Below, one piece after another: positions 14,794 to 58,470 of a stretch of 61,806 nucleotides of DNA (positions within the stretch are counted from its first letter, which is position 1; each line of letters begins with the position of its first letter). The stretch spans positions 1-61,806 of IMG/VR virus record IMGVR_UViG_3300046479_000013; one strand, given 5' to 3'. Position numbers and translations under genes: made by a program. The notes beneath the pieces are model-generated. The model saw only the letters and a list, made by a program, of their open reading frames with translations, made no database searches and was not told where the DNA came from. This DNA is from a virus. Its lineage: Duplodnaviria; Caudoviricetes.

Positions 14794-15147
14794 TTAAGGT
14801 TTCGGTCTATGTAGGTATAAAACAGTGCTTCCAAACTTGGTCTTATGACATCCGAGAACTAACATATTATCCTCAAAATCTTTGAGCTGCTCGATGGTCA
14901 ACACCTTAGATCCAAATAGCATAGGCTCTGGCTCAAAGGCCCATGTGGGTCCCCCTTCCCAAGAGCAAGTGAATAAGGATCCAATGAGGCACAAACCAAA
15001 ATCCTCTACATTTTTGTTGATGAATACTTTTGAGGGATAAACCGTGGTGGAGAATCCCTCACCAAGGAAATCAATAATGCTTGAAGCGGCATCTACTAGC
15101 ACCTGAGGATCCTCAGCAGCTCTGAGTAGTTTAGCGGTTAGTTTCAT
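14794..15147 (-). CDS. KLL-leader family protein
   Basis: Starts MKLTAKLLRAAED; ATGA overlap with upstream gene. Confidence 0.75.
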   Translation of the reverse strand: MKLTAKLLRAAEDPQVLVDAASSIIDFLGEGFSTTVYPSKVFINKNVEDFGLCLIGSLFTCSWEGGPTWAFEPEPMLFGSKVLTIEQLKDFEDNMLVLGCHKTKFGSTVLYLHRPKP

Positions 15148-16796
15148 TCCCATTGCCCTCTGTAGTAGACATCCCCACCACTGGTGTAGGATTCTCTGTA
15201 ACCATTTGCAGTCATCCAATCCAGGATGACATCATACTGCTCAGCGGACCCCTTGAAATTCTTAGGAAGAGAAATGGAGTTCAAGGAAGCATCAAAGGTG
15301 AGGAGATATGAATTTGGACTCAAGAAAACCATATAAGTGGTTCCGATATTGGTTATGTTAGAAGTCAGCCCTGGAACAGGGGCATCCCAATCGATTCCCA
15401 GGGTCTGTAGCAAATCCTTTAGTTCAGAAAGATATTGATCCTTGGTGGCACGCTTAAGGAGTTTGGCCTGCATTCTAGTTTTACCCTTGGCCTCCTGCTC
15501 CGGCGTGAAGGGATATCGGTCAAAGAACACTATGGTGCTGTGCTTGTCCCCCTCCAGGACCTTCCCGCCCATGGCGTAGCCCCAATCAAGGAAATCAGCC
15601 TTGAGCTCTTGATCCCCAGGGCCTCTACCAATGCACAGAGTGTAACTCCACAGCCGATGAGTGAGCGCAGCGATCATGTTGTCCTCTTCAGAACGAATGA
15701 ATACTTGCTTATCATCTATCTTCATCTGGCTGTCTTTGATCCCTAATCCTCGGGCATATTCAGCGAAATCATCTAAGGGAACCTTGTTGAGTTCCGGAGT
15801 CTGATCAGCATTTGTCAGACGACCCAGAACCGGCTTGAAAGATCCCGCTGGCTTAGGTGTGTTCTCCCAACGCTCACGGCCACCCAGATCTCGGAAGACC
15901 ATCTTGAAGTTATGCACGGCTAGCCAGTCTTCAATAGCCTCACGATCTGAAGGTGTAAGGTTAGGTTCTACATGAACCTCGTAGTGATATGTTAGGGGAT
16001 CAGAGAGCTTGGCGGCGAAGCCCTGGAAGGTAATACGGAGGATCCTCTTCTCATCCTTATGATAATCTCTTCCTCTATACAACACGATGGCTACAGGGGC
16101 CTCTTCGGTCTTGAGGGTCTTGTCCCCAAGAGTGGTCTTGAGCTCTTGGACCATCTTACGGGTATCCGCCATTGGAGCATCAGCGTAAGATTCAGCGCAC
16201 TTGAGCAGTTTGGAGGTCAAGGTTTTCTGTGGGTGGATGAAGAAATGAAGCTCACGTGTTGCGGTAGCATCTGAAGCTCGGCCACCCTTGGACAAAGCCC
16301 AATCATACAATTCTTCGAAGACTTCACTCATACCAGATTCCTCAAGCCATTTCTTATTGCTAGACAGAACCAATGTTGCTCCTTGCCCGTATGCCACGAA
16401 GGACACCAGCTTTCGATGAAACTTATCTCTGACTTGAACCCACCCATTCTCGGAAGCGATCAAATTGTCAGGAACACCTAGATCCCGGATGAAGATATAG
16501 AAATCTCGTTCCAGATCATTGTCTGGGCGAACGAAGACATCTTCCCCTCTGTCCGTGAATTCATGATCAAGAGCCCACTGCTTAGCAGAGGCTATGATCT
16601 GTTCATCTTGAGGAATCAATCCATGATTCTCCAAGATCTCTAATCTGAATTGTTTGTTAACTCTGCTGAGTTCTAGAATTGCGTATGTGTTGTTGGAATT
16701 CTGAACACGTATACAATCCCCTACATTACGAATGCGCTTAGGAGAGACATGTAGCTCGGCTAGGAGAACCTTGAATTCTTTAATCATCTGGGCCAT
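15144..16796 (-). CDS. multidomain (polyprotein-like) member of the KLL-leader family
   Basis: Internal LTSKLLKCA and MQAKLLKRA; five DWxxxxG[FY]-type repeats. Confidence 0.75.
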   Translation of the reverse strand: MAQMIKEFKVLLAELHVSPKRIRNVGDCIRVQNSNNTYAILELSRVNKQFRLEILENHGLIPQDEQIIASAKQWALDHEFTDRGEDVFVRPDNDLERDFYIFIRDLGVPDNLIASENGWVQVRDKFHRKLVSFVAYGQGATLVLSSNKKWLEESGMSEVFEELYDWALSKGGRASDATATRELHFFIHPQKTLTSKLLKCAESYADAPMADTRKMVQELKTTLGDKTLKTEEAPVAIVLYRGRDYHKDEKRILRITFQGFAAKLSDPLTYHYEVHVEPNLTPSDREAIEDWLAVHNFKMVFRDLGGRERWENTPKPAGSFKPVLGRLTNADQTPELNKVPLDDFAEYARGLGIKDSQMKIDDKQVFIRSEEDNMIAALTHRLWSYTLCIGRGPGDQELKADFLDWGYAMGGKVLEGDKHSTIVFFDRYPFTPEQEAKGKTRMQAKLLKRATKDQYLSELKDLLQTLGIDWDAPVPGLTSNITNIGTTYMVFLSPNSYLLTFDASLNSISLPKNFKGSAEQYDVILDWMTANGYRESYTSGGDVYYRGQWE

Positions 16797-17170
16797 TATA
16801 TTCTCTTGAGCAGCTTGGCTCGTAAGGACTTCTCTGGATTCGGGATCTTCATGAGTTCCCACATAGGGTAGGATGACACAAACTTCTTACCCCCATGAGC
16901 ATAGCCCCAATCGATTACAGCCTCCAGGATCCCCTGCTCCCATTCAGAAAGAGAGAATCCCGGTTGGAAGACCAGAAGCTCATAGAAGTTGAAGAGGGTC
17001 GTTTCATTCGTAAATTTAAGAAGATAGTCTGGATCGTCACCATACACTCTATTAGTGTCTTGATGACCAGGACGTAGAACAACGATCTGACGAGAGTCAT
17101 GGCGCATGGACTTCCAGTCCAATCCAAGATCAGAAGTAATGAAAGCATCAAATTCTTTAAACGGATCCAT
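16796..17170 (-). CDS. DWxxxxG-domain protein ending in the KLL motif
   Basis: IDWGYAHGG; C-terminus SLRAKLLKRI; TAATG overlap with next gene. Confidence 0.7.
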   Translation of the reverse strand: MDPFKEFDAFITSDLGLDWKSMRHDSRQIVVLRPGHQDTNRVYGDDPDYLLKFTNETTLFNFYELLVFQPGFSLSEWEQGILEAVIDWGYAHGGKKFVSSYPMWELMKIPNPEKSLRAKLLKRI

Positions 17171-17196
17171 GAACCACCATATCTAAAAGGACATAG

Positions 17197-17221
17197 AAAA
17201 TCCCCGGACTGGGCCGGGGAT
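17197..17221 (-). terminator. intrinsic terminator after tRNA-Trp
   Basis: TCCCCGG/CCGGGGA hairpin followed by TTTT on minus strand. Confidence 0.65.
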
Positions 17222-17225
17222 ACAT

Positions 17226-17301
17226 TGGCAGGAGTGACCCGGATCGAACGGGCAACCAGGGGATTTGGAGTCCTCTGCTCTACCTTCTGAGCTTCACTCC
17301 T
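17226..17301 (-). tRNA. tRNA-Trp(CCA)
   Basis: Cloverleaf, loop CT-CCA-AA, encoded CCA. Confidence 0.92.
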
Positions 17302-17306
17302 ATGTG

Positions 17307-17477
17307 TTACGAACTAGGCATGGCCAACCAGAGAATAAAATAGACAAGCAAACCAGGACCAAAGATCAAGAAGATCAGGAAGAGGATCCGCATCACAGCT
17401 GGATCAACGTCGAAATAGTCAGCGAGTCCACCGCATACCCCGGCGATCTCTCCGTTCTTACGAACTAGTCTATCCAT
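17307..17477 (-). CDS. pspC: PspC-domain membrane protein (56 aa, below ORF-track cutoff)
   Basis: Manual translation MDRLVRKNGEIAGVCGGLADYFDVDPAVMRILF...YFILWLAMP; GAGGAG RBS. Confidence 0.88.
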   Translation of the reverse strand: MDRLVRKNGEIAGVCGGLADYFDVDPAVMRILFLIFLIFGPGLLVYFILWLAMPSS

Positions 17478-17478
17478 A

Positions 17479-18120
17479 CTAACTCCTCAAAAGGGGAAGC
17501 TCTTCCAGACAAGTCTTGCAAGCGCCACAAGCCACGTAGACACCATTATCCGTCCGTGGAGTCCGACATGACCAGGAGAGATCCCGAACCTCCTTGGGGA
17601 GGAAATCATAGATTTCACGCTTAGTGTATTTGACAACCGGGAAAAGCTTCTTCACGATTGTGAACATTGAAATCACATGACAGCTACGTTGGAACCGCCA
17701 TTCAGATACTGGATCATAGGGGGCACCGTCTGACTTGGTTCTTCCAATGGCAATGTGCTTAACATCTGGCCAGAAGGAACAGATGTTCCCGGCAGTGAAA
17801 GCTACAATGTCGGTATCCCAGGGGAACCCTCCGTTGAAGGTTGGGAAGGCACAGGTGGATTCTGAATATGACAACCTAGGATTAGGACTGTAATAGGCAA
17901 GGATATCCTCCACAGCTCTACTCTCTACCTCATCCCTACCCTCTTGGTTGAGGATGTTGATGTGATGGACATGTAGATCATATTGAGAATACTCTGGTTG
18001 ATTGAGGAGCACATGAAGCATCCCCAAGGAGTCCAACCCTCCCGACAACATCACAAGGATGGTTGGGGAGGTAGGATTCGAACCCACGGATGACGGGATC
18101 AAAACCCGTTGCCTTACCAC
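17479..18120 (-). CDS. QueC-like PP-loop ATPase (start either GTG inside tRNA-Gln or near 18050)
   Basis: SGGLDS PP-loop; WSC...CGACKTC zinc site. Confidence 0.75.
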   Translation of the reverse strand: MVRQRVLIPSSVGSNPTSPTILVMLSGGLDSLGMLHVLLNQPEYSQYDLHVHHINILNQEGRDEVESRAVEDILAYYSPNPRLSYSESTCAFPTFNGGFPWDTDIVAFTAGNICSFWPDVKHIAIGRTKSDGAPYDPVSEWRFQRSCHVISMFTIVKKLFPVVKYTKREIYDFLPKEVRDLSWSCRTPRTDNGVYVACGACKTCLEELPLLRS

Positions 18121-18134
18121 TTGGCGACTCCCCA
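18060..18134 (-). tRNA. tRNA-Gln(TTG)
   Basis: Cloverleaf, loop TT-TTG-AT, CCA. Confidence 0.92.
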
Positions 18135-18135
18135 G

Positions 18136-18564
18136 TTAAAGCTTGGCCTCGTCCTGATAGATCTGGCGTAGATGCATCAGGAGCTTGCCGAGCATATTCT
18201 TCCCCGTCCCATCCATGGTCCCCCAGTAACGATCACCCCAGGTGTTGCCTTCTTCCAGGTGAGCATCTCCGGTTAAGAGAAGATCTTTTCGTAGGTCCTC
18301 GTGCTGGTCAAACTTGGCCTGCAGGACTTCCCACATGATGTCGTCCTTGACTTCATCCCAATCAGAGCGGAGAGTGATCTTACGACCAAGCTTCTTGCTC
18401 AGACCAGCGGTGAGAATCGTGAACTCCTTAGCCCGAGCGGGTTCTTTCTGAGACTGGTATGCAGCCTCGGTGCTCGGAAAGGTCAAGCCAAAGACCGTCA
18501 CGGGAGCTTCATGAAAGTTGCTCAGGAAGCGATAGACGCCACTGAACTCTTTGATGCTGTCCAT
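18136..18564 (-). CDS. NADAR (YbiA-like) family protein
   Basis: FLSNF, TEAAYQSQK, DWDEVKDDIM, KFDQH, WGDRYWG, GKNMLGKLLM. Confidence 0.92.
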   Translation of the reverse strand: MDSIKEFSGVYRFLSNFHEAPVTVFGLTFPSTEAAYQSQKEPARAKEFTILTAGLSKKLGRKITLRSDWDEVKDDIMWEVLQAKFDQHEDLRKDLLLTGDAHLEEGNTWGDRYWGTMDGTGKNMLGKLLMHLRQIYQDEAKL

Positions 18565-18578
18565 GATGGTCTCCTTGA

Positions 18579-18656
<78 letters not shown>

Positions 18657-18822
18657 ATGATACCCCAGTTGTGCTACTCCGCTGAGGGGCCGGAGGTATT
18701 CAATCCCCTTGCGAGGACAGGCACTAGAACGTCCAAGACTATCAAGACCATACCTACTTGGCTAGGTGAGGGGCTAACCGTGAACCAAATCCCCTCGGGT
18801 CAGAGATCTAAGTTACCGGGGT

Positions 18823-19206
18823 TCATAAACCCTGGATCCCCTTGAGGAAGTCTTCATCATCTTCCAGAGCATTAGCATCCAAAGGAGAATCCACTAGTTT
18901 CGCTGTAATGGTGTCCTCTAAGGCTTCTTCATGATCCTCATTGTTCTCATAATCGAAATCTGCTTTCCATGAGACCCATTCGAACTCATGCTCTTCTACA
19001 TCTCCACCCATGGATTCAAACCCATCTAGGTAATCACCAAGGACCTTCTTCATTTCCCGCCATAATCTACGCTCAATCTCAAATGGGACTTCTGTTCTCT
19101 GCCCCATTTCCACTTTGACCAAGAAGGGTTTGAACTTTCCAGCCTTGGATCTGATTGTGTAGCCCCAGAGGGAAGCGGTGAGGAGTTTGGCTGTGAATCG
19201 GATCAT
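18823..19206 (-). CDS. KLL-leader family protein
   Basis: MIRFTAKLLTAS; acidic. Confidence 0.75.
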   Translation of the reverse strand: MIRFTAKLLTASLWGYTIRSKAGKFKPFLVKVEMGQRTEVPFEIERRLWREMKKVLGDYLDGFESMGGDVEEHEFEWVSWKADFDYENNEDHEEALEDTITAKLVDSPLDANALEDDEDFLKGIQGL

Positions 19207-19538
19207 TTGTAGATCCCCTTGATGGTGTGAAAGGTGGGGACGTAATAGGATCGCACAGCATCCTTTACACGTGTGAAATTATGAGTGACCAGCCAGTCTT
19301 CTACAGCATCCAGATAGTCTTTTGGGACAGTGTCATACACGTAGATGGTTGGCCGTTGGGCCGTTGTGTCCATGTCCTCATTGGAAACCGCCATAATCAT
19401 CTTGTTTCTAAAATGGATGGCCCTACCCCAATGCTCCCCTTGATTTCTAAACCCAAAGGTCTGTTGAAGACTCTTGGCGAGAAGCCAGACATCGTTCTTG
19501 TTGAAGGCGGCTTGTAGAAGTCTAGAGGTCAATCTCAT
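19203..19538 (-). CDS. KLL-leader family protein
   Basis: MRLTSRLLQAA; EDWLVTHNF. Confidence 0.75.
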   Translation of the reverse strand: MRLTSRLLQAAFNKNDVWLLAKSLQQTFGFRNQGEHWGRAIHFRNKMIMAVSNEDMDTTAQRPTIYVYDTVPKDYLDAVEDWLVTHNFTRVKDAVRSYYVPTFHTIKGIYK

Positions 19539-19942
19539 TTCGTATCTTCCATCACATCTATGAAGCCTTCATCGTCGTCCGGGGTCAAGTAGAAATCTAC
19601 CATCTTGTGCTTGGCCATTCCTAATGTGTAGGGTCCATCCCACTCATGGACGCCCTCTTGATAGTTCCCGTTGTAGACGGTTATAGAACATACCCAGTAG
19701 GTATGCTCAGCATCTTCCTCGGCAGCAGCCTCACCCCACATTTCGGCGTCAATCTTGGCCTTCACAATTATGGCGTAATCCACAGAGTCCTGCTCATCAC
19801 TACGCTCACTACCCACGATCTTCTTAAAACCCACAAGCTTGATGGGTGGCAGAAAAGGTGCGTAGTTCTCGTTCATGGATCGCTCCAAGGCTTCCTTGGT
19901 GATCTCTGTGGCACGCTTGAGGAGTTTAGCAGACAGTCTCAT
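19535..19942 (-). CDS. KLL-leader family protein
   Basis: MRLSAKLLKRATE; start placed downstream of tRNA. Confidence 0.75.
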   Translation of the reverse strand: MRLSAKLLKRATEITKEALERSMNENYAPFLPPIKLVGFKKIVGSERSDEQDSVDYAIIVKAKIDAEMWGEAAAEEDAEHTYWVCSITVYNGNYQEGVHEWDGPYTLGMAKHKMVDFYLTPDDDEGFIDVMEDTK

Positions 19943-19962
19943 AGTTAAGGCTGGTAAAGATT

Positions 19963-20040
19963 TGGTCGGTGTGGTTGGATTCGAACCAACGTCCTCTCGC
20001 GTCCGAGGCGAGTCGTCTGACCAGGCTGGCTTACACACCG
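19963..20040 (-). tRNA. tRNA-Pro(CGG)
   Basis: Cloverleaf, loop CT-CGG-AC, CCA. Confidence 0.85.
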
Positions 20041-20044
20041 TGAT

Positions 20045-20123
20045 TGGTCGGGATGAGAGGATTCGAACCTCCGACTTCCTGTCCCCCAGACAGGCGCTCT
20101 AGGCCAGGCTAAGCCACATCCCG
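20045..20123 (-). tRNA. tRNA-Pro(GGG)
   Basis: Cloverleaf, loop CT-GGG-GG, CCA. Confidence 0.9.
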
Positions 20124-20127
20124 ATGA

Positions 20128-20201
20128 TGGTTGGGGTTCTCCGATTCGAACGGAGGAAGGGTGGTTCAGAGCCACCTGGTTTACCACTAGCCTAAACCCC
20201 A
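20128..20201 (-). tRNA. tRNA-Gln(CTG)
   Basis: Cloverleaf, loop CT-CTG-AA, CCA. Confidence 0.9.
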
Positions 20202-20209
20202 ATTGTGAA

Positions 20210-20285
20210 TGGTGGACCGAGAGGGATTTGAACCCCCGACACCTGGATTTTCAGTCCAGTGCTCTACCCACTGAGCTATCGGTCC
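20210..20285 (-). tRNA. tRNA-Phe(GAA)
   Basis: Cloverleaf, loop CT-GAA-AA, CCA. Confidence 0.93.
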
Positions 20286-20401
20286 TTGATAAGTTGATTG
20301 TTTTGATACGTGAAATAAACTTTGCTTTTCCCTTACGTAACGGGGATAATCGTTGCGTCCGGAAAGACAGTTTGGACTCTTTACCTTACCTTGGAGCGGT
20401 T

Positions 20402-20701
20402 ATGGTAGTAGAGTTGGAGAGAAGCCAGTTTTCGACCCAGTGTGCCTGGTGCAAAAGAGTTCGCATTGGGGACAAATGGAGACCGGAGCGCAGGGGTGAG
20501 CCCTGCTACACTCATGGGATCTGCCCACATTGCATCAAGAAACTCTACCGTGAGGGCGTGAACACCAGATTCAAACTCCGAAGGGCCTATGTTGCCCATT
20601 GGGCCTCTGGGATAGTCCCAGACAACCTTCATTGCTACATCGCTGGAATTGTGATTGTATTGCGGCACATCCACCGGATCACCGGGATGTTCAAGCGTTA
20701 A
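20402..20701 (+). CDS. small zinc-binding domain protein
   Basis: CAWCKRVR...W...THGICPHC; GGAG upstream of ATG 20402. Confidence 0.65.
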   Translation: MVVELERSQFSTQCAWCKRVRIGDKWRPERRGEPCYTHGICPHCIKKLYREGVNTRFKLRRAYVAHWASGIVPDNLHCYIAGIVIVLRHIHRITGMFKR

Positions 20702-21162
20702 GCTGTCCGCTGGTTGACACAGTCCTGATATTCCACGACGTTCATCTCCATGAAGTCAGCACCCTCCATGAGGGCAGCAGAGACACGGTGGTTACCGTCC
20801 TCGATCAGGTAACGGCCAGAGGGCATGTGGATCACCTGGGGTGGAGTGATCTTAAAGACCATACCAGGGTTGTTCATGATCCCACTGAGCTTGTCCGTGA
20901 AGATGTACTCCTGATCAGATTCTACCTTGTTGAGCGGAACGTTACGGCGTTGTGAAGTGACATACTTGAGATACCCATCCGGGATAGTTTCTCGGGCCTC
21001 CATGTCCCCTTTTGAGGGGATGATCCAGGGGAAGAGCTTGGCGAGCTTGATCCGGCCTTGGTAGTCTGTGAGGGCGTCGATCTTCTCCATGAGAGCCTCA
21101 GCACCGGGGGCATCTTCTTCTAGATCAGCTCGCTTGAGTAGTTTTGAGGTTAGACTAAACAT
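20698..21162 (-). CDS. KLL-leader protein with ParB/Srx-like domain
   Basis: MFSLTSKLLKRAD; PQVI...YLIEDGNHRVSAA. Confidence 0.75.
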   Translation of the reverse strand: MFSLTSKLLKRADLEEDAPGAEALMEKIDALTDYQGRIKLAKLFPWIIPSKGDMEARETIPDGYLKYVTSQRRNVPLNKVESDQEYIFTDKLSGIMNNPGMVFKITPPQVIHMPSGRYLIEDGNHRVSAALMEGADFMEMNVVEYQDCVNQRTA

Positions 21163-21472
21163 ATTTGCACCAACAATCTGATTCCTCATCGTAGCTGTTA
21201 GCTACGAGCCAATCCTTCACATCTTCCACCACAGAGGGATCTAGATTCTGAACAACATAGAAGTAGAAGGTTGGAAGGAAGGATACCTCCTTGAAATACC
21301 CTACATACGAGCCGTTTACTGAGATCCGATATCTGCTTATCTGCGACTCATGATCGTAGGCGTCTTCAACGGAGCCTCCAATGGACTCACACAGTTCCTG
21401 AGCGTCCTTGTAGGCCGCATCATCGGAATCTTGCGTGTCCGCTCGTTTGAGTAGCTTGGCGTTAAGTCTCAT
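21155..21472 (-). CDS. KLL-leader family protein
   Basis: MRLNAKLLKRAD; KDWLVANSY. Confidence 0.75.
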   Translation of the reverse strand: MRLNAKLLKRADTQDSDDAAYKDAQELCESIGGSVEDAYDHESQISRYRISVNGSYVGYFKEVSFLPTFYFYVVQNLDPSVVEDVKDWLVANSYDEESDCWCKYV

Positions 21473-21524
21473 ACTAAGGGGAACCGAAACCCTCTATCCG
21501 GTTCCCCTATACGCCCTTGCTGAT

Positions 21525-21600
21525 TGGTGGAGCCACTGGGAGTTCAACCCAATCCTCAAGCTTGCAAAGCTAGCGTGCCACGCCTCAACACTTTGGCCCC
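21525..21600 (-). tRNA. tRNA-Ala(TGC), atypical D/T loops
   Basis: G3:U70, loop TT-TGC-AA, T-loop TTGAACT, CCA. Confidence 0.75.
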
Positions 21601-21605
21601 AGGGG

Positions 21606-21699
21606 TCTGAACGTTCTGTCTATAGGGTCTACGATCGATGCCCTATAGGTCCTTGATCTGTTCGAATTCGCCTCAAGTCAGCGCCTCGGAACATTCAGA
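21606..21699 (-). ncRNA. candidate structured RNA between the two tRNA-Ala genes
   Basis: ~12-bp closing helix enclosing CTTGA/TCAAG and CTATAGGG/CCCTATAG hairpins. Confidence 0.35.
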
Positions 21700-21700
21700 T

Positions 21701-21776
21701 TGGTGGAACTTACGGGAGTCGAACCGCTGACCTCCTGCATGCCATGCAGGCGCTCTCCCAAATGAGCTAAAGCCCC
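21701..21776 (-). tRNA. tRNA-Ala(GGC)
   Basis: G3:U70, loop AT-GGC-AT, CCA. Confidence 0.92.
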
Positions 21777-22156
21777 TATTGATTATGACGTGGAATTATT
21801 AAAGTCAAACACTTCGCTACATCGTCTGGACCCTCACCGGGGATCTGCTCTTCATCAGGAAGATCTTCCAAACGATACCCCTTGGCAGCGATCCAGTCCT
21901 GAACTAAATCGTTGATTTCAGGATCAGGAATTCCTCCAAATTTAGGATTCAACCCCACATAATGGATTTCCTCTGTTCTAGTCTTCCTGTAGTCAAAGAT
22001 CATAAAGGAGGGAGGTTGAGTTTTGAAATCCACCCTAGCCCAGTTAGGCCCGGTCCCACTTTGAATCCCGGTCCCAACATAATCAATCATGTCCCTTGCC
22101 ATATCTCTGGCATCAAGGGAAGAAGCTAGAAGGAGTTTAGCAGAGAGTCGGATCAT
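21776..22156 (-). CDS. KLL-leader family protein
   Basis: MIRLSAKLLLAS; QDWIAAKGY; GGAG RBS. Confidence 0.75.
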   Translation of the reverse strand: MIRLSAKLLLASSLDARDMARDMIDYVGTGIQSGTGPNWARVDFKTQPPSFMIFDYRKTRTEEIHYVGLNPKFGGIPDPEINDLVQDWIAAKGYRLEDLPDEEQIPGEGPDDVAKCLTLIIPRHNQ

Positions 22157-22181
22157 ACTAAACTCCAGACAACTCTTGGAT

Positions 22182-22258
22182 TGGGGGGAAGGAAGAGATT
22201 CGAACTCTCGCCGAACAGGATCACAGTCAGGCGCTCTAACCATCTGAGCTACGGTTAC
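22182..22258 (-). tRNA. tRNA-His(GTG)-like, chimeric/mispaired (possible pseudogene)
   Basis: Intact D and T arms, GTG loop, C73-CCA; acceptor and anticodon stems do not pair. Confidence 0.55.
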
Positions 22259-22260
22259 AT

Positions 22261-22347
22261 TGGTTGGGATAGGGGGACTCGAACCCCCACGGCCTTGCGG
22301 CAACAAGCACCTCAAGCTTGCGCGTCTACCAGTTCCGCCATATCCCA
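22261..22347 (-). tRNA. tRNA-Leu(GAG)
   Basis: Long variable arm, loop TT-GAG-GT, CCA. Confidence 0.92.
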
Positions 22348-22359
22348 CTTGTGTTACAT

Positions 22360-22446
22360 TGGTGCGCCCGGAAGGATTCGAACCTCCGTAGAGTTTGACT
22401 CGGCAGATTTACAGTCTGCTGCTTTTAACCACTCAGCCACGTGCGC
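22360..22446 (-). tRNA. tRNA-Tyr(GTA)
   Basis: Long variable arm, loop CT-GTA-AA, CCA. Confidence 0.92.
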
Positions 22447-22456
22447 ATTGTTAAAA

Positions 22457-23272
22457 CTATTGGTGCCCATGGTCGGACTCGAACCGACAAGCTTGCGCGG
22501 AAGAACCTAAATCTACTGTGTTTGCCATTTCACCACACGGGCAAAGATCCTTGAACTTAGGGATACTCTGGACATCCCCAGAAGATTCGAACGCTTCAAG
22601 GGCATGGAGCTTCCAAAGCATTCTCAAATCTATTCTAGGATTATCCTCTAAAGCCTTGTTCATCTTTAGGATGTCATTTTGCTTCAAAAGACCCTTGACT
22701 TCTAGAAATACTCGAAGATCAATGAGATAGAAATCTGGGGTGTATCTTCTAATCTTATCAAATCGAATAATCCTTCGTTCCCAACGAATTCCAAGTTGGT
22801 TCAATTTCTCAGCCACTCTTCGTTCCCAGGTCCCTTGAACTCTGATTTGTTTATCCCCACACTGAACTTCGTAGTAAGGGACATTTCCACCCGTTCTTTG
22901 AACATACTTTGTTCTAGAAAGAGACATCTTGTTACGAGATTCAAGAGAGTGAGGTTTACCCTTCTTCCCTATTCGAGAAGCAGAAACCTTCTTTCCATAA
23001 GACTCGATACGAGGATCAATCTCCTTAGTCAACCCTTTATTCCAAGGGATTGAAGGGAGATGGGTTTGTTTTCTCTCTTTACCACAATGGGATCTGTGCC
23101 CACAATAGGATTGTTTATTACTAAATTCAACCCCACATTTATCACAGACATATTTATCGTGAGGAACGGCCCTAAGAGATCTAGGACCGTTACCATCACA
23201 ACCGTTAGCGTGTCTGGAAAAATTGGCTGCTTGGATTTCAAATCCGCACTTATCACATTTGATAGATCTCAT
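22457..23272 (-). CDS. homing-type endonuclease (Zn fingers, NUMOD3-like, PD-(D/E)XK-like C-terminus)
   Basis: CxxC motifs, PWNKGLTK, HSLESRNKMS, YTPDFYL..LEVKG; last codons run through tRNA-Leu(TAG). Confidence 0.8.
   Translation of the reverse strand: MRSIKCDKCGFEIQAANFSRHANGCDGNGPRSLRAVPHDKYVCDKCGVEFSNKQSYCGHRSHCGKERKQTHLPSIPWNKGLTKEIDPRIESYGKKVSASRIGKKGKPHSLESRNKMSLSRTKYVQRTGGNVPYYEVQCGDKQIRVQGTWERRVAEKLNQLGIRWERRIIRFDKIRRYTPDFYLIDLRVFLEVKGLLKQNDILKMNKALEDNPRIDLRMLWKLHALEAFESSGDVQSIPKFKDLCPCGEMANTVDLGSSAQACRFESDHGHQ
22461..22542 (-). tRNA. tRNA-Leu(TAG)
   Basis: Loop TT-TAG-GT, variable arm, CCA. Confidence 0.85.
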
Positions 23273-23300
23273 GAGAACCTCTAAGAGGAATCCAGAAGTC

Positions 23301-23335
23301 TACCCAGGGCGTCTCGCCAATTCCGCCACACTCGC
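23301..23335 (-). pseudogene. 5' half of a tRNA-Leu-like gene
   Basis: GCGAGTGTGGCGGAATTGGCGAGACGC (acceptor 5' strand + D arm); no 3' half follows. Confidence 0.6.
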
Positions 23336-23487
23336 TATATGGACCGCATGCCACGAAGTTATAGCGCGGGGTGATAAACCTGAGTCCTAAGACCATTGAG
23401 CATATCCCTACTACCGCAACCTTTCATTCTGTCCTTACGGAGCAGAACCATCCGGTCCACCTTGCCTATTACGTTATCTAGTTGTCA

Positions 23488-23516
23488 AATAAATCAGGCC
23501 CCTCGAAAGGGGCCTG
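23488..23516 (-). terminator. intrinsic terminator
   Basis: CAGGCCCCT/AGGGGCCTG hairpin followed by ATTTATTT. Confidence 0.65.
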
Positions 23517-23615
23517 GGGAGGTCAAAATCTTTGTTCTCTTAGATTATTCGGTCCCCAGACCCTTACCGCTTGCGGGATACGCAAGTAGCTGTTGGGCAA
23601 ATGGGGCGAAATGGT

Positions 23616-24236: not shown

Positions 24237-24245
24237 TCCTTGCCT

Positions 24246-25330: not shown

Positions 25331-25353
25331 AGGCTCTTCTTGTTGTATCTAGA

Positions 25354-27774: not shown

Positions 27775-27790
27775 TCGTCACCATCACTAC

Positions 27791-29199: not shown

Positions 29200-29210
29200 A
29201 ACAGCAATGG

Positions 29211-29231: not shown

Positions 29232-29262
29232 ATTCGCAAGCATAGATTGTTAGGGATGCTTG

Positions 29263-47286: not shown

Positions 47287-47373
47287 AGCCAAGAGAGGGA
47301 TTTGAACCCTCGACGGAGATTGCTCTCAAGGGATTTGCAGTCCCTACCCTTCGACCACTTGGGACACCTTGGC
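47287..47373 (-). tRNA. tRNA-Cys(GCA) with long variable arm, CCA not encoded
   Basis: Loop CT-GCA-AA, U73, GAGA-GCAA-TCTC variable hairpin, 3' end CTA. Confidence 0.8.
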
Positions 47374-50827: not shown

Positions 50828-51568
50828 ATGACATATTACCTATTGTATAAGACAACATGCCAGATTACTGGAAAATTCTACTGCGGAATGCACAAGACAG
50901 AAGAACTGGAAGATGGATATCTCGGATCAGGAAAACGCCTCCGGGCTTCAGTTGCAAAGTATGGAAAGGAGAACTTCACCCGAGAGCTTATTTCTACCCA
51001 CGATAGCCAAGAAACTCTTTCCAAGGCTGAAGAGGAATTGATCACCCCCGAGATGCTATCTAACCCCATGTGTCTGAATCTTGTTCCAGGCGGGAAAGGA
51101 GGCTCAGGACCAGGGAAGCTTGGTGCTTCACTTGGGGGTCAAGCCTATGCTAAGGCGCTTGAGGAGAACTCTGCATTCAGAGAAGTTAAGATACCCCAAC
51201 TCTGTGCTGCCGGGAAGCTTGGAGGAGCCTTGGGAAGCAACCTTCAAATTGGAGAAAGGGGAAAGATTTCTGCTCAAACTCCAGAGGCCAGATCCAAGAG
51301 AATCTCTACCATGAGAGAACGGGGTCACCAGAAAGGTGCGAAGAACAGTCAGTCTGGAACCACGTGTATCTATCACCCAGAGCACGGAAACAAGAGGATA
51401 CCTCAACAAGAAATAGATTCCTGGATCACTCAAGGATGGTTACCCGGAGCTAATATTGGAACCTGTTTCATTCATCATCCTGAAGCGTTGAAGGGGAAAC
51501 TCATTCCCAAAGGAGACCTGGATTCTTGGACCGATCAAGGTTGGATCCCTGGAATGAAACCCAGATAG
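50828..51568 (+). CDS. GIY-YIG (Seg-like) homing endonuclease
   Basis: LLYKTTCQITGKFYCGMH...DGYLGSG...YGKENF...NLVPGG; two C-terminal xxxGW.PG repeats. Confidence 0.88.
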   Translation: MTYYLLYKTTCQITGKFYCGMHKTEELEDGYLGSGKRLRASVAKYGKENFTRELISTHDSQETLSKAEEELITPEMLSNPMCLNLVPGGKGGSGPGKLGASLGGQAYAKALEENSAFREVKIPQLCAAGKLGGALGSNLQIGERGKISAQTPEARSKRISTMRERGHQKGAKNSQSGTTCIYHPEHGNKRIPQQEIDSWITQGWLPGANIGTCFIHHPEALKGKLIPKGDLDSWTDQGWIPGMKPR

Positions 51569-53067: not shown

Positions 53068-53679
53068 TCACTCCTCATCATCTTCTTCGACATTCCCATC
53101 CCCGATTCCATCCTGAAGGTTCCCGTTCTCATCCACATGACAGACGCTCTTCAAGACGTAATTTTCCATTGAAGAAAGAAATGCTGTTCGACTACCAATC
53201 TGGAATTGGTAATTCCCCATGACGTCCCCCATCCCTTCAAAGGAGTAGGCCTCTAGATTTCTATCTTGGAAAACCAGCCAGGTGGTGTCATCTGACTCAT
53301 CGTTGCAACTGACCACCTGTATGTGTAGACTGTCTACATCTGGAGAGTTGTTCTTTTCATCATTGAAGATGGACCATACCAACTGGGTTCCGGGAATAGC
53401 TCGAAAACCTTGAACGAATTTTCTTACTTCTTCCTCAGGAGGAGCCATTTGTCCAATCTGAGCTCTGTATTCTTCAGCCTCTTCCTCATCAAAGAAATCT
53501 GGCTCTACCCCAGGCCCAGAGATATAGAACTCATAGGATTTAGAAACCTGTATTCCCAGGAGAGCCAGGACACCTTTTAAATCTGGATCTGCTTTCTTCA
53601 AGACCTTTGCTTCAAATTGCTCTGGGGTTAGAGCCTTGCGAGGCTTGGCGGCTTTCTTTAGAAGTTTAGATCCGAACAT
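53068..53679 (-). CDS. KLL-leader family protein
   Basis: MFGSKLLKKAA; acidic; AGGAG RBS. Confidence 0.72.
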   Translation of the reverse strand: MFGSKLLKKAAKPRKALTPEQFEAKVLKKADPDLKGVLALLGIQVSKSYEFYISGPGVEPDFFDEEEAEEYRAQIGQMAPPEEEVRKFVQGFRAIPGTQLVWSIFNDEKNNSPDVDSLHIQVVSCNDESDDTTWLVFQDRNLEAYSFEGMGDVMGNYQFQIGSRTAFLSSMENYVLKSVCHVDENGNLQDGIGDGNVEEDDEE

Positions 53680-53731: not shown

Positions 53732-54241
53732 TTAATCACGACCTTGACCTAAACCAGAACGGCTAGCCCGTTGCCTTCGAAGAGCAGCCAGAGCATCCTG
53801 CAGTGGATCCAGGTTGGTCTTACGCTCGAACTCCATGAGCCTCATCACCAGAGCGTTGTAGACCGCACGGTCTTTGGTTAACGTGAGATCCGTACGCAAT
53901 CCATTGATGAAAACATTAGAGCCCACATAGGGTTGGAAGACCAACCCCTTCCCCGAGGTCCAGGAGGAATACCCTTTGGTCTGCAGGGATAGACGAACCA
54001 GGGGATCCTTACCAGGACCTAACTGAAGGTAGTAGTTCGTCCCACCGGATCTACCGGGACCGTCATCATCGTAGTCCTCTGACACAATAGCCCAGCCGGT
54101 CTTGTCCTCGTTTAGCAAGGCGGCCACGGCCTCCGAGATTTCATTGAGAAGCCGGTTCTTGGCGTTCTCGTAGGCGGAGTCCGAAGTGAATTCTGGATGA
54201 TCAGGAACATACGGGGAAAGAATTGGGCGAACCATAATCAC
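53732..54241 (-). CDS. hypothetical protein
   Basis: Overlaps NAMPT stop; no recognised motif. Confidence 0.6.
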   Translation of the reverse strand: MIMVRPILSPYVPDHPEFTSDSAYENAKNRLLNEISEAVAALLNEDKTGWAIVSEDYDDDGPGRSGGTNYYLQLGPGKDPLVRLSLQTKGYSSWTSGKGLVFQPYVGSNVFINGLRTDLTLTKDRAVYNALVMRLMEFERKTNLDPLQDALAALRRQRASRSGLGQGRD

Positions 54242-55707
54242 AACTCCGTGTTGGCGCGGACCTCTTCGAGGGTCCAGTCCATGAGCAGGTTTCCGTTCTC
54301 CCAGACGGGGACGGTCAGCGGATCAGCGTTCTTCTCCTGGCCGACAGCAGAGAACATGAGGCCGTCAGAACGGCGAAAGGTCTTCACCTTACCTGGCTTG
54401 CTGATCTTGCCGAGATCCGTGATGGGCTTCTTGAACACTTCCACCCACTCCCCGTTGATGTCTAAGGCGCTGGCCTTGTGAGCATACTTGAGCGTGTCTC
54501 GGTCCACCTTCTGCAGCAGGGCACCACCCATCCCGAAGGCCCAGTTGTCAGCACTGTAGCCCAGGAGCATGGCACGGTTAAGGATCTGAGCGATGCTCTC
54601 AGGGCACACACCGTCACCCTGGATGATACGGACATGCTTGAGGACCTTGAAACCCTTGGAGTTCACGGTGGAGCCAAACTTGCGATCCAGGATTTCCACC
54701 AGGGCCATATTGACTTCCACGGGATCACCAGAATCAGGTCGGATCACCACGGTCTTGCCGGAGTCAATGACCTCTTGGCGAAGCTTGCCACCCCAGATGT
54801 TCTCGGCAGCGTTGAAGATATTATAGCTGTCACTGACACAGGCGATGAAGGGGAATTCCGGCCCATAGGCGTGAACCATCTGCTGCATCTGAAGCCATTC
54901 ACCAAGTGGGCCCAGGGCGGTCATGGTGCTGTGCTCGCTGGCGGGAATGGAGAACCCAGCCATCTCCGAGTGGTAGAATTCCGCTCCAGCGATGATGGCA
55001 TCAATGGTGTCCGTGCCTCTGAAGTGGGGAAGGTGAGACAGACCACCGATCTCACAAGTCTGCTCCGAAGAGCCACCGCGCATACCGAAGTCATGCAGCT
55101 TGAAGAGCAGACCAGACAGGTCGTCGGCGGTCACGGACAGATAGTGCTTGATGATCTGCTTAATGGTGTAGCTGATGGCCGAGACCGTGGTGGGATACCA
55201 GATGGCACGAAGCAGCTGGGTCTCAATGGGGCTGCAACCCCAAGCGAAGGCCGGGTCCGTGGCCTCCAGGATCACCTGGGGCACGAGGGTGTTGGTGATC
55301 ATCCCCTCGGGGAGAGCGGAGATCCGCACCGGGGGAAGGCCTCCATGACGCTCTACGACCTGCTTGTAGCCATCGTAGTTGAAGGGCTCACCGTGCCGGG
55401 TGACGATGTCCCGCATGACGTCCACGTGTTCCATCGTGATAGGCTTGCTGAGCACCTGCTTGAGCCACATCTGAGGGCCGAAGAACGGGAACCGGGTCAC
55501 ATTGAGGTGCTCGTCCAGGCCCAGGGCAGGAGAGATATCCCGGATGAGGTCATTGAAAGGAGCGAGTTCCTTGAGGGAGATCTTGCTGCCACGGCTCTCG
55601 GTGTAGCCGTAATAGCCTTGTAGGCCCTTGGGGTATTGGAGGAATTGGCTGTATTTGTAGCTGTCAGCACGGAGCCAGCAGTTGCGGAGGAGTTCATAGT
55701 TGGACAT
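54238..55707 (-). CDS. nadV: nicotinamide phosphoribosyltransferase
   Basis: DSYKYSQ..QYP, WYPTTV, LHDFGMRG, IPASEHS, VSDSYN, IRPDSGDP, IIQGDG, FGMGGALLQ; AGGAG RBS. Confidence 0.95.
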   Translation of the reverse strand: MSNYELLRNCWLRADSYKYSQFLQYPKGLQGYYGYTESRGSKISLKELAPFNDLIRDISPALGLDEHLNVTRFPFFGPQMWLKQVLSKPITMEHVDVMRDIVTRHGEPFNYDGYKQVVERHGGLPPVRISALPEGMITNTLVPQVILEATDPAFAWGCSPIETQLLRAIWYPTTVSAISYTIKQIIKHYLSVTADDLSGLLFKLHDFGMRGGSSEQTCEIGGLSHLPHFRGTDTIDAIIAGAEFYHSEMAGFSIPASEHSTMTALGPLGEWLQMQQMVHAYGPEFPFIACVSDSYNIFNAAENIWGGKLRQEVIDSGKTVVIRPDSGDPVEVNMALVEILDRKFGSTVNSKGFKVLKHVRIIQGDGVCPESIAQILNRAMLLGYSADNWAFGMGGALLQKVDRDTLKYAHKASALDINGEWVEVFKKPITDLGKISKPGKVKTFRRSDGLMFSAVGQEKNADPLTVPVWENGNLLMDWTLEEVRANTEL

Positions 55708-55723
55708 GGTGTATTCTCCTGGG

Positions 55724-56764
55724 TTAGCTGAGGCTGAGGAGGTTGAAGATAATATCGAAGTGGTCTTCGAAGATATTGTTACGTCTGGAAGCGAGGTCCT
55801 GCAAGGAGACCCACATGGCTGCATCAGCATCGTCGGCGGCTCGAACCTCCGGGAGTCTTCGGGTCTTGGGGTCCAGTTCCAGCCGGATCAAACCAGCATG
55901 GGTGATCACCCGGCCACGGAGAGACCGATTGGGATTGTCGAAGAACTGAATGGCCGACAAACGGTCATAGAGTTTCTCCTTGGAGACCTTGATCCCCGTC
56001 TCCTCCTTGAGCTCACGGATAATTCCGTCCTTTATGCGCTCCCTTTGGTCAAGGAAGCCACCAGGGAGAGCCCAGCTACCCTTTCCGGGAGCAAACTTGC
56101 GGCGCACCATTAAGATGTGACCGGCACAAACCACGACGGCGTCCACGGTCTGCATGGTGACCGGGAACTTCTTGGGGTCGTAGTCCTTGTAGTAGTCGTA
56201 TTCCTCCTTGCGCATCCCAAAGGCCAGGGTGGTCATCCATTTCTCGATGAACCCAATGACCCCATGGGGCACCTGGCCACGCCAGATCCCGGCCTTCTCC
56301 ACGCACCCAGGTTCTCCGAATTTGTATTCGAAGATCGCTTCCCGGATGGCCGTGGCATCCATTGGAATGGTCTTGTCCATGGCCTCGACGAAATCCCACT
56401 GGGGGAACATGTCGATGTAGTAGGAGGTCCGGTCCTTCTTGTGGCCGACCAGGCAGATGTTGGAATCCGAAGCGTTGGTGTGCTGGGAGATCACCTGCTG
56501 CACTGCGGCTGTCCAAGCGTCATCGTTGGAGTAGTCACAGATGGGGAGCACGGTGATCCGATCCCTCTCTTCCGGGAAGGTGCTCAGGATCATCTCCTTG
56601 CGATCCTCGAAGCTCCAGGGGTTCTTGGGGCTCAGGAACGTGAAGGCCGATCCTACCAGGACCAGGACGTTGTCGGCTAATTCCAGTGCCTTCTCAATCG
56701 AAGCCTTGTGGGCTAGATGAAGGGGCTGCATCCTACCGATGAAAACTGCAGTTGCGTATCGCAT
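55724..56764 (-). CDS. nadM: bifunctional NMN adenylyltransferase / Nudix hydrolase
   Basis: FIGRMQPLHLAH, KNPWS, GHKKD; WALPGGF..RELKEETG Nudix box; FEDH. Confidence 0.94.
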   Translation of the reverse strand: MRYATAVFIGRMQPLHLAHKASIEKALELADNVLVLVGSAFTFLSPKNPWSFEDRKEMILSTFPEERDRITVLPICDYSNDDAWTAAVQQVISQHTNASDSNICLVGHKKDRTSYYIDMFPQWDFVEAMDKTIPMDATAIREAIFEYKFGEPGCVEKAGIWRGQVPHGVIGFIEKWMTTLAFGMRKEEYDYYKDYDPKKFPVTMQTVDAVVVCAGHILMVRRKFAPGKGSWALPGGFLDQRERIKDGIIRELKEETGIKVSKEKLYDRLSAIQFFDNPNRSLRGRVITHAGLIRLELDPKTRRLPEVRAADDADAAMWVSLQDLASRRNNIFEDHFDIIFNLLSLS

Positions 56765-56821
56765 AGACTCTCCGTCTCTGTTGTTGGGACCTCTCTGGTC
56801 TCCAACTAGGTTACCGCAAGC

Positions 56822-57739
56822 TTATGAAATCGCAACGTGCTCCTTGAGCCACTTTTGAACACCAAACAATTGACCACAGCCTCCGCCGATATCATCCTGC
56901 CCTGCAGGGTCGAAGACTCGGGTGTTGTAGCCTTGTTGGGTGAAGATGCTGGCAATCTCCTGGATCCGATCAATGTGATGATACCCCGCTGACTTCATGG
57001 TTTCATTCTTTGAGCAAACCACGGAGAAGGTGAAGTAGAACATCTGAGGCGGGAAAAGAGTCACGAGCCGTTCAAAATCCTCGGGAGTCTGGTTGGAAGG
57101 GTCGATGCAATAGTTGAGGAACACCGGCCTACCAGTGGCCAGCCACCATTCAATCCCGCAATCCCGGATCTGCCGAAGATTCATCTTGTTCTCATAGGGA
57201 ATGAGCTTGCTGCGGGCCTCGTCCGTTGAGCGGTGAATCGAAAACTGCAGACCCAACTCTGGACAACCCAGGCGTGAGTAGCGGATGATGTCTTGGAACA
57301 CATGAGAATCGTTGATCCCTATGGTGGAGATCAAGAATTGAGTCCGGTTGTCAGAGCATACGCTGTGCTGGCGCAGCTGAGAGATGGAGTTGCGAACATT
57401 AGACCAGTTGAGCATGGGCTCACCCATGGACATGAACATGATCTGGGTCTTCTTACCCTTCCACTCGAACACGGCTTGGATATCCATGTCCCTCAGGATA
57501 TATTCCACCTGAGACACGATCTCCTCCGTGGTGAGGTTGCGGATGAAGTGGGCTCCGGTGCCACAGAACAAGCACCCTACGGGGCACCCACTCTGGACCG
57601 AGCAACAGATCACCGTGCGCTCCTCGAAGGAGTTGTAACGGTAGAGAACGGCCTCCACGATGGCATCAGCCTTGGTGAAGATATACTTCCAGACGTTCCC
57701 TTCTGAGGAATCTCGACGCTCTACGCTGTCCCAGACCAT
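56822..57739 (-). CDS. RlmN/Cfr-like radical SAM RNA methyltransferase
   Basis: SVQSGCPVGCLFCGTG, RNLTTEEI, FMSMGEPMLN, DIGGGCGQL. Confidence 0.88.
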   Translation of the reverse strand: MVWDSVERRDSSEGNVWKYIFTKADAIVEAVLYRYNSFEERTVICCSVQSGCPVGCLFCGTGAHFIRNLTTEEIVSQVEYILRDMDIQAVFEWKGKKTQIMFMSMGEPMLNWSNVRNSISQLRQHSVCSDNRTQFLISTIGINDSHVFQDIIRYSRLGCPELGLQFSIHRSTDEARSKLIPYENKMNLRQIRDCGIEWWLATGRPVFLNYCIDPSNQTPEDFERLVTLFPPQMFYFTFSVVCSKNETMKSAGYHHIDRIQEIASIFTQQGYNTRVFDPAGQDDIGGGCGQLFGVQKWLKEHVAIS

Positions 57740-57778
57740 AACCTCTCCTAGGCCACCATGACCCTATGGAGAGGTTAC

Positions 57779-58147
57779 TCAGTTGTGCAAGGCCCTTGGA
57801 GGAACGTTTGTGAGCTCAAAGATGTAACGGGCGTAAGTGAATCCCTGGGTGTCGATTACCCAGATCCGATTCCCAAAGCGCACGACACACTCATTGATGC
57901 CATCCAGACCAGCACCAGCGGCCACGGCAGCATCATACCTTAGAACCTCTTCTAGATCCGTGTGCAATGCAGCCTCGTCTTCGATGTCAATCACGGGCAG
58001 CTGTTTCAATGCAGCTTTCTGCTCTCGACGGAGGATTGAGTAATTGAACTTCAATGCCTCGTCCGGGAATGCCTTGCGATCCCAGAATTCGTGGAACGTC
58101 TCTTCCAGGTCCATCACAGATCCTCGTTTGAGCAAAACATTCTCCAT
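57779..58147 (-). CDS. acidic protein with divergent leader
   Basis: MENVLLKRGS. Confidence 0.6.
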   Translation of the reverse strand: MENVLLKRGSVMDLEETFHEFWDRKAFPDEALKFNYSILRREQKAALKQLPVIDIEDEAALHTDLEEVLRYDAAVAAGAGLDGINECVVRFGNRIWVIDTQGFTYARYIFELTNVPPRALHN

Positions 58148-58470
58148 ATGTTTATCTCCAGGATCCAAGTTCTATAAATTCCTGTGGTAAATTCTGTTTT
58201 CTGACTTTCTCGGAAACCCAGGATCACCAAAAGATCTCCCAATTGATCTTGTTGTTCTTTTGTGGACATTCTAGGATTTTCAAAGAAATCAATTGTTTCA
58301 CCCATTCGATTATAATACCAAAGAATGATTTCCTCAGAATCATTGTAGAGGTAACTGGCTCCTTCTTCAAAATTCAGTTTGGCAGCTGGAAAGATTCTCT
58401 TCAGACCTCTACGCAGAGAGGCCATAACAGCTGAATGACTGGATGCCTTTTTGAGTAGCGGGTTCTTCAT
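58114..58470 (-). CDS. KLL-leader family protein (divergent)
   Basis: MKNPLLKKAS; GDLLVILGF; GAGGAG RBS. Confidence 0.7.
   Translation of the reverse strand: MKNPLLKKASSHSAVMASLRRGLKRIFPAAKLNFEEGASYLYNDSEEIILWYYNRMGETIDFFENPRMSTKEQQDQLGDLLVILGFRESQKTEFTTGIYRTWILEINIWRMFCSNEDL

Follow-up and report, generated by a model that had tools for sequence, protein, structure and literature searches.

A conserved eleven-residue leader, possibly an address tag, heads a duplicated family of small acidic proteins in an uncultured Caudoviricetes phage

Some phages load their heads in advance with a few proteins that block host defences, a short peptide serving as the address. As a working principle, the closest known system to the one reported here is the capsid targeting sequence (CTS) of phage T4, which is cleaved after Glu by the prohead protease. 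The T4 internal proteins IPII and IPIII begin with MKTYQEFIAE, and the ip genes flank a tRNA cluster and a GIY-YIG gene on one strand. In giant phages (SPN3US and the phiKZ group), paralogous ejection and inner-body proteins are cut at Glu-type sites, and a short terminal peptide plus spacer on fast-evolving cargo or effectors is also the design of encapsulin and bacterial microcompartment cargo peptides and of the RxLR-dEER and PEXEL leaders. Passages of PMC3012670 present the T-even internal proteins as a highly diverse defence set whose sole common part is the conserved CTS, and IPI* as beta sheets between N- and C-terminal helices; parts of PMC5694885, PMC7411985 and PMC10052503 state that giant phages pack many proteins which enter the host after prohead-protease cleavage. 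Here we report on the IMG/VR virus record IMGVR_UViG_3300046479_000013 (Caudoviricetes), the entire 61,806 bp of which were analysed and are called the window below. We describe a leader peptide of 11 residues that opens the small acidic alpha/beta proteins of a family which is lineage-specific and heavily duplicated; both the leader and the body family are new.

Based on a six-frame scan with the pattern [AST][KR]LL, extraction of open reading frames (ORFs) and a position matrix built from 25 copies, 25 ORFs are found to begin with the leader M-x-[LF]-x-[AS]-[KR]-L-L-x-x-A. They span positions 14794-58470, 23 on the minus strand and 2 on the plus strand, and the count takes in two variants, MRLAAPLLKRA (38020) and MKNPLLKKA (58470). 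The consensus of the first 11 residues is M-R-L-T-A-K-L-L-K-R-A. All 25 copies have Leu at positions 7 and 8, A or S at position 5 and K or R at position 6, and 21 of them have Ala at position 11; position 12 (n = 25) is D in 6, E in 3, A in 3, T in 3 and other residues in the remainder. The window has three more copies, two internal and in frame in the 550-aa ORF 15144-16796 and one at the C-terminus of ORF 16796-17170, and 25 of the 28 copies are thus located at the extreme N-terminus. On the whole, 29 matrix sites reach 10 bits in the window against 0-6 (mean about 1.9) in 20 shuffles of it, 25 of these 29 being the training set of the matrix, and none of the recognisable enzymes of the window scores 10 bits or more. 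Each leader has 3-4 basic residues and no hydrophobic run; the hydrophobic core of about 10 or more residues and the twin Arg that mark Sec or Tat signal peptides are not seen, as hydrophobic residues between the charges never stand more than two in a row and the leader is followed by an acidic spacer. The residue pattern would make a basic amphipathic helix, which is our reading and not a computed one. The 12 residues after the leader have a mean net charge of about -1.1, compared with about +0.2 at the same place in other proteins, and the isoelectric point of the body is below 6 in 22 of 24 leader proteins (median 4.6) compared with 20 of the 41 other gene calls that reach 100 aa. All this bears out a sequence-only reading made earlier of this DNA, which had placed leader genes on both strands over 44 kb and described the leader as basic, without a Sec-type core, usually ending in Ala, preceding acidic bodies and missing from the recognisable enzymes; all 14 leader examples that it quoted are recovered by the scan.

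The same reading had put the conservation at the protein level, and the codons agree. The first Leu of the leader is encoded by CTA in 4 copies, CTC in 10, CTG in 4, CTT in 4, TTG in 2 and TTA in 1, so that all six Leu codons are used, as are four Ala and Ser codons and both Lys codons, and no base in the 30 nt upstream of the leaders is conserved above 0.5 bit. Since synonymous codons vary and the upstream 30 nt are not conserved, selection acts on the peptide.

The leader proteins were then compared with every leader masked by X. An iterated body search of this kind yields one new family, comprising 15 window genes, 7 metagenome proteins and 4 genes of G001, a 63.8-kb viral record carrying repair and replication genes (DNA ligase, UvsX-like recombinase, helicase and phosphoesterase); the profile includes these 26 proteins and no reversed decoys. 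The family unit is an alpha/beta domain of about 105-140 aa with a C-terminal DW[LI]xxxG[FY] helix, and in some members it occurs in tandem. In the alignment, the members of 103-187 aa share one plan: the leader at 1-11, an acidic and often Pro-containing spacer between leader and folded body, a helix 2 whose end reads [DE]-h-h-x-x-[FY]-[LIV], a middle part that varies and is rich in strands, and the C-motif E-x-x-h-x-D-W-[LI]-x-x-x-G-[FY]. A C-motif profile of 23 columns, made from 12 copies in 10 window proteins, finds six more proteins at E<0.1, all with the leader or its variant, with reversed decoys and ORFs of Synechococcus phage B3 beginning at E ~1.7. In a 16-row alignment the pairwise identity is 0.60 in the leader columns versus 0.15 elsewhere, i.e. 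the leader is about four times better conserved than the bodies. Of the earlier statement that about 27 unrelated-looking proteins share a leader, one half stands, as a leader heads 25 ORFs, while the other half is corrected: 15 of the window genes are homologous even with the leader masked.

The smaller family members are all on the minus strand. They are MRLTSRLLQAA (19203-19538, 111 aa), MRLNAKLLKRA (21155-21472, 105 aa), MIRLSAKLLLA (21776-22156, 126 aa), MRLNAKLLKKA (25354-25917, 187 aa), MKFTARLLKTA (25914-26384, 156 aa), MVSLTAKLLKTA (26381-26695, 104 aa), MIFQAKLLVSA (31629-31985, 118 aa), MRFMAKLLRAD (43130-43537, 135 aa), MPIKFSSKLLLAA (43534-43953, 139 aa), MRTNQPFTAKLLKRA (43943-44338, 131 aa) and MRLISKLLTAA (44686-45063, 125 aa), each named by its leader; the variant MKNPLLKKA (58114-58470, 118 aa) joins them by its body, at E 7e-11 in the masked iterated search. 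Larger members have other arrangements. The 550-aa tandem-domain ORF 15144-16796 (minus strand, P0002) has C-motifs at residues 289 and 525 and the internal leaders TLTSKLLKCA (anchor 16214) and RMQAKLLKRA (anchor 15467). The 368-aa protein of 38020-39126 (plus strand, P0003), headed by the variant MRLAAPLLKRA, has two or three units, with two strong C-motifs, a weak third and degenerate leaders at the junctions. The 374-aa protein of 31982-33106 (minus strand, leader MKLTSKLLMSA) carries the family C-motif at its C-terminus, and its middle is related to the products of 34034 and 34752.

Eleven leader genes have no family body match. On the minus strand these are MKLTAKLLRAA (14794-15147, 117 aa), which ends 26 nt upstream of the 1901-aa ORF 9062-14767; MIRFTAKLLTA (18823-19206, 127 aa), a borderline case at E 0.03-0.05; MRLSAKLLKRA (19535-19942, 135 aa); MFSLTSKLLKRA (20698-21162, 154 aa); MILMAKLLKRA (24246-24557, 103 aa); MRFTAKLLVAA (26689-27774, 361 aa), with no homolog besides itself among 5.8 billion protein clusters; the paralogs MRLTAKLLKKA (34034-34768, 244 aa) and MLTSRLLKRA (34752-35522, 256 aa); MRLLSKLLLAH (40419-40802, 127 aa); and MFGSKLLKKA (53068-53679, 203 aa), with a weak second copy FEAKVLKKA (anchor 53610). 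The eleventh, MKFSSKLLVTA (36770-38020, 416 aa), is on the plus strand. BLASTP of the bodies connects only 31982, 34034 and 34752, through a separate shared stretch. Bodies of three or more types thus carry the leader: those of the 15-gene family, those with the module of 31982, 34034 and 34752, and the unmatched ones. In addition, the 124-aa ORF 16796-17170 (minus strand) has no N-terminal leader and ends in SLRAKLLKRI followed by TAA, overlapping the next ATG (TAATG); its family match is not significant (E 0.38). Searches of Pfam and PHROG with the 10 largest leader proteins returned only SAM_3 without an assigned stretch (E 8.7e-5, in 31982) and two weak PHROG matches (E 3e-4 and 5e-3, in 20698), and for 18 small leader proteins Pfam gave no family common to more than one member at E<=1. 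By these comparisons the bodies appear to belong to no Pfam or PHROG family.

An AlphaFold2 model of 21155-21472, made from the 16-row alignment, has a mean predicted local distance difference test (pLDDT) of 77 and a predicted template modelling score of 0.68. Its body consists of a helix at 19-31, four strands, a helix at 79-91 and a last strand, and pLDDT is below 50 at residues 1-3 and 7-16, which is most of the leader and spacer. This one model suggests, by its low pLDDT there, that the leader is a free appendage not packed on the fold. Foldseek gave no match at E<=0.001 in PDB and BFVD; the best result of the VIA wide structure search, the AdoMetDC-like N-domain of spermine synthase (Z 7.8), is at background level by the note of the tool, and the Atlas structure neighbours YjbR, DUF1801 and XisI have template modelling scores of at most 0.52. 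A predicted self-complex of 2 copies scores 0.01, which lends self-association no support and does not argue against it. For the tandem protein P0017, AlphaFold gives a mean pLDDT of 65 and about 54-58 at the internal leader, values too low to be informative.

Below we report the distribution of leader and family. G001 contains 8 leader sites, one of them internal, as well as two MHPLLKRS variants (27064-27717 and 28968-29414, minus strand), and blastn detects no shared DNA between it and the window; the leader is thus retained across diverged phages. A similar looser start, MENVLLKRG, is found in the window at 57779-58147 (minus strand), and together these starts suggest that the tag also exists in a shorter form, x-LLK[KR]-[AGS]. 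When the gene calls of the window are compared with those of G001 by blastp (E<=1e-4), a single match results, a GIY-YIG homing-endonuclease-like protein, at 23616 in the window, with 44% identity. Against 1.84 billion representatives the family profile has 23 matches at E<=0.001. Of these, 14 come from the window or G001 and 2 are spurious, being the repeat proteins P0020 and P0024. The other 7 are new clusters, all annotated as hypothetical, on contigs of at most 31 kb and with the leader present; the family thus amounts to about 21 clusters in this set. Among tandem proteins the internal leader is kept in P0017 and P0023, and is degenerate in P0016, P0018, P0021 and the window protein of 38020. 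Other searches add little. An IMG/VR scan for M-x-L-x-[AS]-KLLKRA gave 3 single matches, one of which led to G001, the others being chance; a second leader pattern hit 14 IMG/VR stretches, of which only those of G001 are real, and among the matches listed in metagenome contigs all 119 loci are chance. A word search with the leader profile over 5.8 billion proteins found 8 proteins among 8000 scored candidates, all from the window or G001. Searches for related loci with the helicase, P0016 and P0025 found none, and one based on Ro60 found a single contig (G004), on which no leader occurs; none of these searches led to a relative longer than G001. No family member is found in phage B3, T4 or G004, and the leader pattern has 1 match in B3, equal to the control. 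With these three lacking a member and few clusters found, the family is rare and lineage-specific.

How does this locus compare with the systems described above? As in the T4 CTS, a peptide of about 10 residues stands at the N-terminus of otherwise diverse small proteins, and as with the T4 ip genes, the leader genes lie near tRNA and homing-endonuclease genes and mostly on one strand. Unlike the T4 case, the core is basic (A-K-L-L-K-R-A) and not acidic (Y-Q-E-F-I-A-E), the two sequences being unrelated; [LI]-x-E, the testable defining feature of the CTS, is missing in register; and T4 has three such genes compared with about 25 in the window, more than half of them paralogs of one domain family. 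The ejection proteins of SPN3US and the phiKZ group are identified virion components with Glu sites, whereas the leader proteins are only candidate virion components and have no conserved site of this kind, and no sequence match or clear fold match of leader proteins to the inner-body proteins of this group was found. Encapsulin and microcompartment cargo peptides and the RxLR-dEER and PEXEL leaders follow the same logic with different sequences, organisms and machineries, and serve as analogy only.

We favour the reading that the leader is a portable address tag, a short linear motif that would be recognised by one common receptor and would give a fast-changing, effector-like protein repertoire one common destination. 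That the leader is read by some common partner is probable in our judgement. The favoured destination is the assembling prohead, where tagged proteins would be packed and then injected with the DNA; by analogy this destination is possible, and we hold it tentatively. Cleavage of the T4 type after Glu is not part of the proposal. The prohead is favoured for several reasons: architecture and gene neighbourhood parallel T4; the T-even internal proteins are, in the passages of PMC3012670 cited above, diverse defence proteins with only the CTS in common; and three leader or family genes (16796-17170, 15144-16796 and 14794-15147) run directly into fibre-like genes, with no called terminator before the 1901-aa ORF and the tail-collar ORF. 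Furthermore, the internal leader copies at domain junctions (two in the window and one each in G001, P0017 and P0023) would fit polyprotein processing. If the tag targets the capsid, the at least 25 tagged proteins form a list of candidate injected effectors, and the leader would add to the CTS another tag, unrelated to it in sequence, by which foreign proteins could be loaded into phage particles. A stronger version, which we find rather doubtful, is that this phage lineage has its own trafficking code, in which the 11-residue basic leader and the acidic spacer load at least 25 effectors, from the expanded family and from recruits, into the virion for co-injection by recognition and processing rules unrelated to the Glu-specific system of T4; if true, it would be the phage counterpart of the RxLR or PEXEL effector leaders.

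Several observations weigh against the prohead. No gene for capsid, scaffold, portal or prohead protease was found on the 61.8-kb window or on G001. No Glu-type cleavage site occurs in a fixed register: [LI]-x-E is present within residues 6-30 in 9 of 26 leader proteins and 8 of 40 others, [SAG]-x-E in 7 of 26 and 9 of 40, and position 12 is Glu in only 3 of 25. The bodies are strongly acidic, and part of PMC3012670 describes lysines of the T4 internal proteins in contact with DNA phosphates. At least 25 species would be a large cargo set. Over half of the proteins being paralogs, common descent could account for the shared N-terminus, with no need of a portable tag; one leader copy is C-terminal, and roughly half of the internal leaders found in tandem proteins are degenerate. 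Upstream of the leader genes the T4-type late promoter motif TATAAATA is absent, and sigma-70-like sites are not enriched (18 and 12 versus 18.9 and 16.9 in shuffles).

The leader might instead be an N-terminal degron read by a host ClpXP-type AAA+ protease, like N-motif-1 of lambda O and Dps; it would then make accessory proteins short-lived in a timed manner, or swamp the protease with substrate. We regard this as unlikely. The N-motif consensus is reportedly (Flynn et al. 2003) 'polar-T/hydrophobic-hydrophobic-basic-hydrophobic'. Lambda O begins with MTNTAKILNFGR and E. coli Dps with MSTAKLVKSKA (both translated from sequence records), and PMC12723719 takes the lambda O segment TNTAKILNFGR as the N-motif-1 degron and shows it inside the open channel of ClpX. 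Residues 4-8 of lambda O, T-A-K-I-L, stand in the register of T4-A5-K6-L7-L8 of the leader consensus, and the Dps N-terminus scores 7.4 bits on the leader matrix, in the register of the M-L-T-A-K-L-L forms, compared with a background in which 0.025% of internal windows of proteins from the window and G001 reach 5 bits. Like the N-motif-1 degrons, which share T-A-K-[IL]-[LV] in the same register, the leader is a peptide at the extreme N-terminus (25 of 28 copies), unstructured in the one protein modelled, and its genes lie among accessory genes and not head genes. However, lambda O scores below 0 on the leader matrix and lacks the invariant L-L-x-x-A, which is the best-conserved part of the leader, while the variants NPLLKKA, AAPLLKRA and HPLLKRS have no T-A-K. 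Eleven conserved positions exceed the need of a five-residue motif, five well-kept internal copies and one C-terminal copy have no free N-terminus, and the likeness was spotted post hoc among a handful of known tags. As a degron, the leader would act as a timer for accessory proteins across the genome. Whichever reading holds, the result is a new and rare protein family in which conservation of the terminal peptide and rapid drift of the bodies form an extreme contrast.

A docking motif is equally improbable in our estimate. Here the basic amphipathic peptide would bind one common partner other than the capsid or a protease, such as a chaperone, the membrane, a phage protein, or a protein or defence hub of the host, and would anchor many variable domains to it. 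The motif tolerates N-terminal, internal and C-terminal positions, and effectors in an arms race would be expected to pair a conserved anchor with diversifying bodies. The small residues kept at positions 5 and 11 and the invariant L7-L8 fit docking as well, and suggest binding in a protein groove more than to lipid. Against this, no candidate partner was found, the homing-endonuclease-like gene being all that blastp (E<=1e-4) matched between the gene calls of the window and G001, and a general docking motif does not require so extreme an N-terminal bias.

The leader may also have no addressing role, being the best-conserved end of a duplicated family that is kept for folding, solubility or translation start, with the unmatched bodies diverged past detection; we consider this less probable still. 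It draws on the homology of 15 of the 26 leader-bearing window genes, and many unmatched genes fall in the 103-154 aa size class, most unmatched proteins showing the helix-2 motif weakly after the spacer. The 5' codons, moreover, hint at some selection on translation: AAA makes up 14 of the 22 Lys codons of the leader but 23% of those in gene bodies, and the second Leu is CTC in 17 of 25 copies. On the other hand, a role in folding is not apparent for a leader left unpacked in the model, and the leader is far better conserved than its own fold. It is carried by bodies of 203-416 aa without a family match (26689, 36770 and 53068) and by the different shared module of 34034 and 34752, while two domains, the N-terminal one of P0017 and ORF 16796-17170, have no leader.

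Finally, the sequence-only reading had named a conserved nucleotide element, such as a promoter, a recombination site or the end of a mobile cassette, as what could explain the motif away, and this is hardly credible: the mild AAA and CTC bias speaks for it, but codons vary among synonyms, the flanks are not conserved, no intergenic 7-mer is enriched, and the peptide recurs in G001, which has no blastn match to the window.

As for the source of the DNA, we take the window to be part of a very large uncultured phage with no head gene on this part, because CheckV gives G001, the sole related record, a completeness of 22%. Besides the leader genes, the window encodes a tRNA nucleotidyltransferase, rIIA, rIIB, Ro60/TROVE, NAMPT, an NMNAT-Nudix protein, a UvrD-type helicase, GIY-YIG and HNH endonucleases, NADAR, S-adenosylmethionine (AdoMet) decarboxylase, a CoaE-like kinase and a Toprim protein. 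There are 30 tRNA genes, every one on the minus strand, and the leader genes are interspersed with them and with the GIY-YIG and HNH genes. The helicase has its best match, at 39% identity, in the 245-kb Synechococcus phages B3 and B23, and megablast of 20 kb of the window against GenBank phages gave tRNA matches only and no long shared DNA. Near-identical contigs are present in several public runs labelled peat metagenome, at least three in number, and no RNA run is listed among the public ones that contain this DNA. Contigs from four of these runs cover 14794-34793 at low depth with few or no differences, and show no gain or loss of leader genes; the depth peaks over this region are sharp, confined to tRNA genes and derived from other organisms.

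Directly upstream of the run of leader genes from 27774 down to 25354 lies 28322-28987 (minus strand), which encodes 221 aa with a HELRH sequence of the HExxH type and weakly matches DUF6782, a family of putative metallopeptidases (E 2.8e-5, under the Pfam cut-off). This peptidase-like protein could be a processing enzyme for the leader. Its ORF stops at TAG, and ORF 27791-28321 continues directly in the same frame, so that suppression would yield a fusion of about 398 aa; the tRNA at 42475-42550 (minus strand) has the anticodon CTA, of amber-suppressor type, and is labelled Pyl by ARAGORN. TAG recoding as the cause of the tandem ORFs is rejected, as 22 of 91 crude gene calls of the window stop at TAG and table 11 already leaves the tandem ORFs open. 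The small AdoMet decarboxylase gene at 47344-47745 (minus strand; PF02675, E 4e-11) is not matched by the leader-family profile. Homing-endonuclease-like GIY-YIG and HNH genes are dispersed in the tRNA and leader region, at 23616-24236, 39809-40282 and 58486-58929 on the minus strand and at 50828-51568 on the plus strand. At 7536-14767 (minus strand), the 1901-aa protein, rich in G, T, S, A, N and P and with four PHROG 26190 repeats, is followed by a 507-aa tail-collar-domain protein; the two are probably fibre or adhesin genes, and neither has a sequence relative in PDB. RNA-repair and RNA-quality genes adjoin the tRNA array, namely the tRNA nucleotidyltransferase (1902-3257, plus strand), NADAR (18136-18564, minus strand) and Ro60/TROVE with a vWA domain (29730-31301, minus strand). 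The array is also adjoined by a NAD salvage pair of NAMPT and the NMNAT-Nudix fusion (54238-56764, minus strand), and Synechococcus phage B3 has a matching NAD-salvage neighbourhood (gp46, gp49, then tRNAs).

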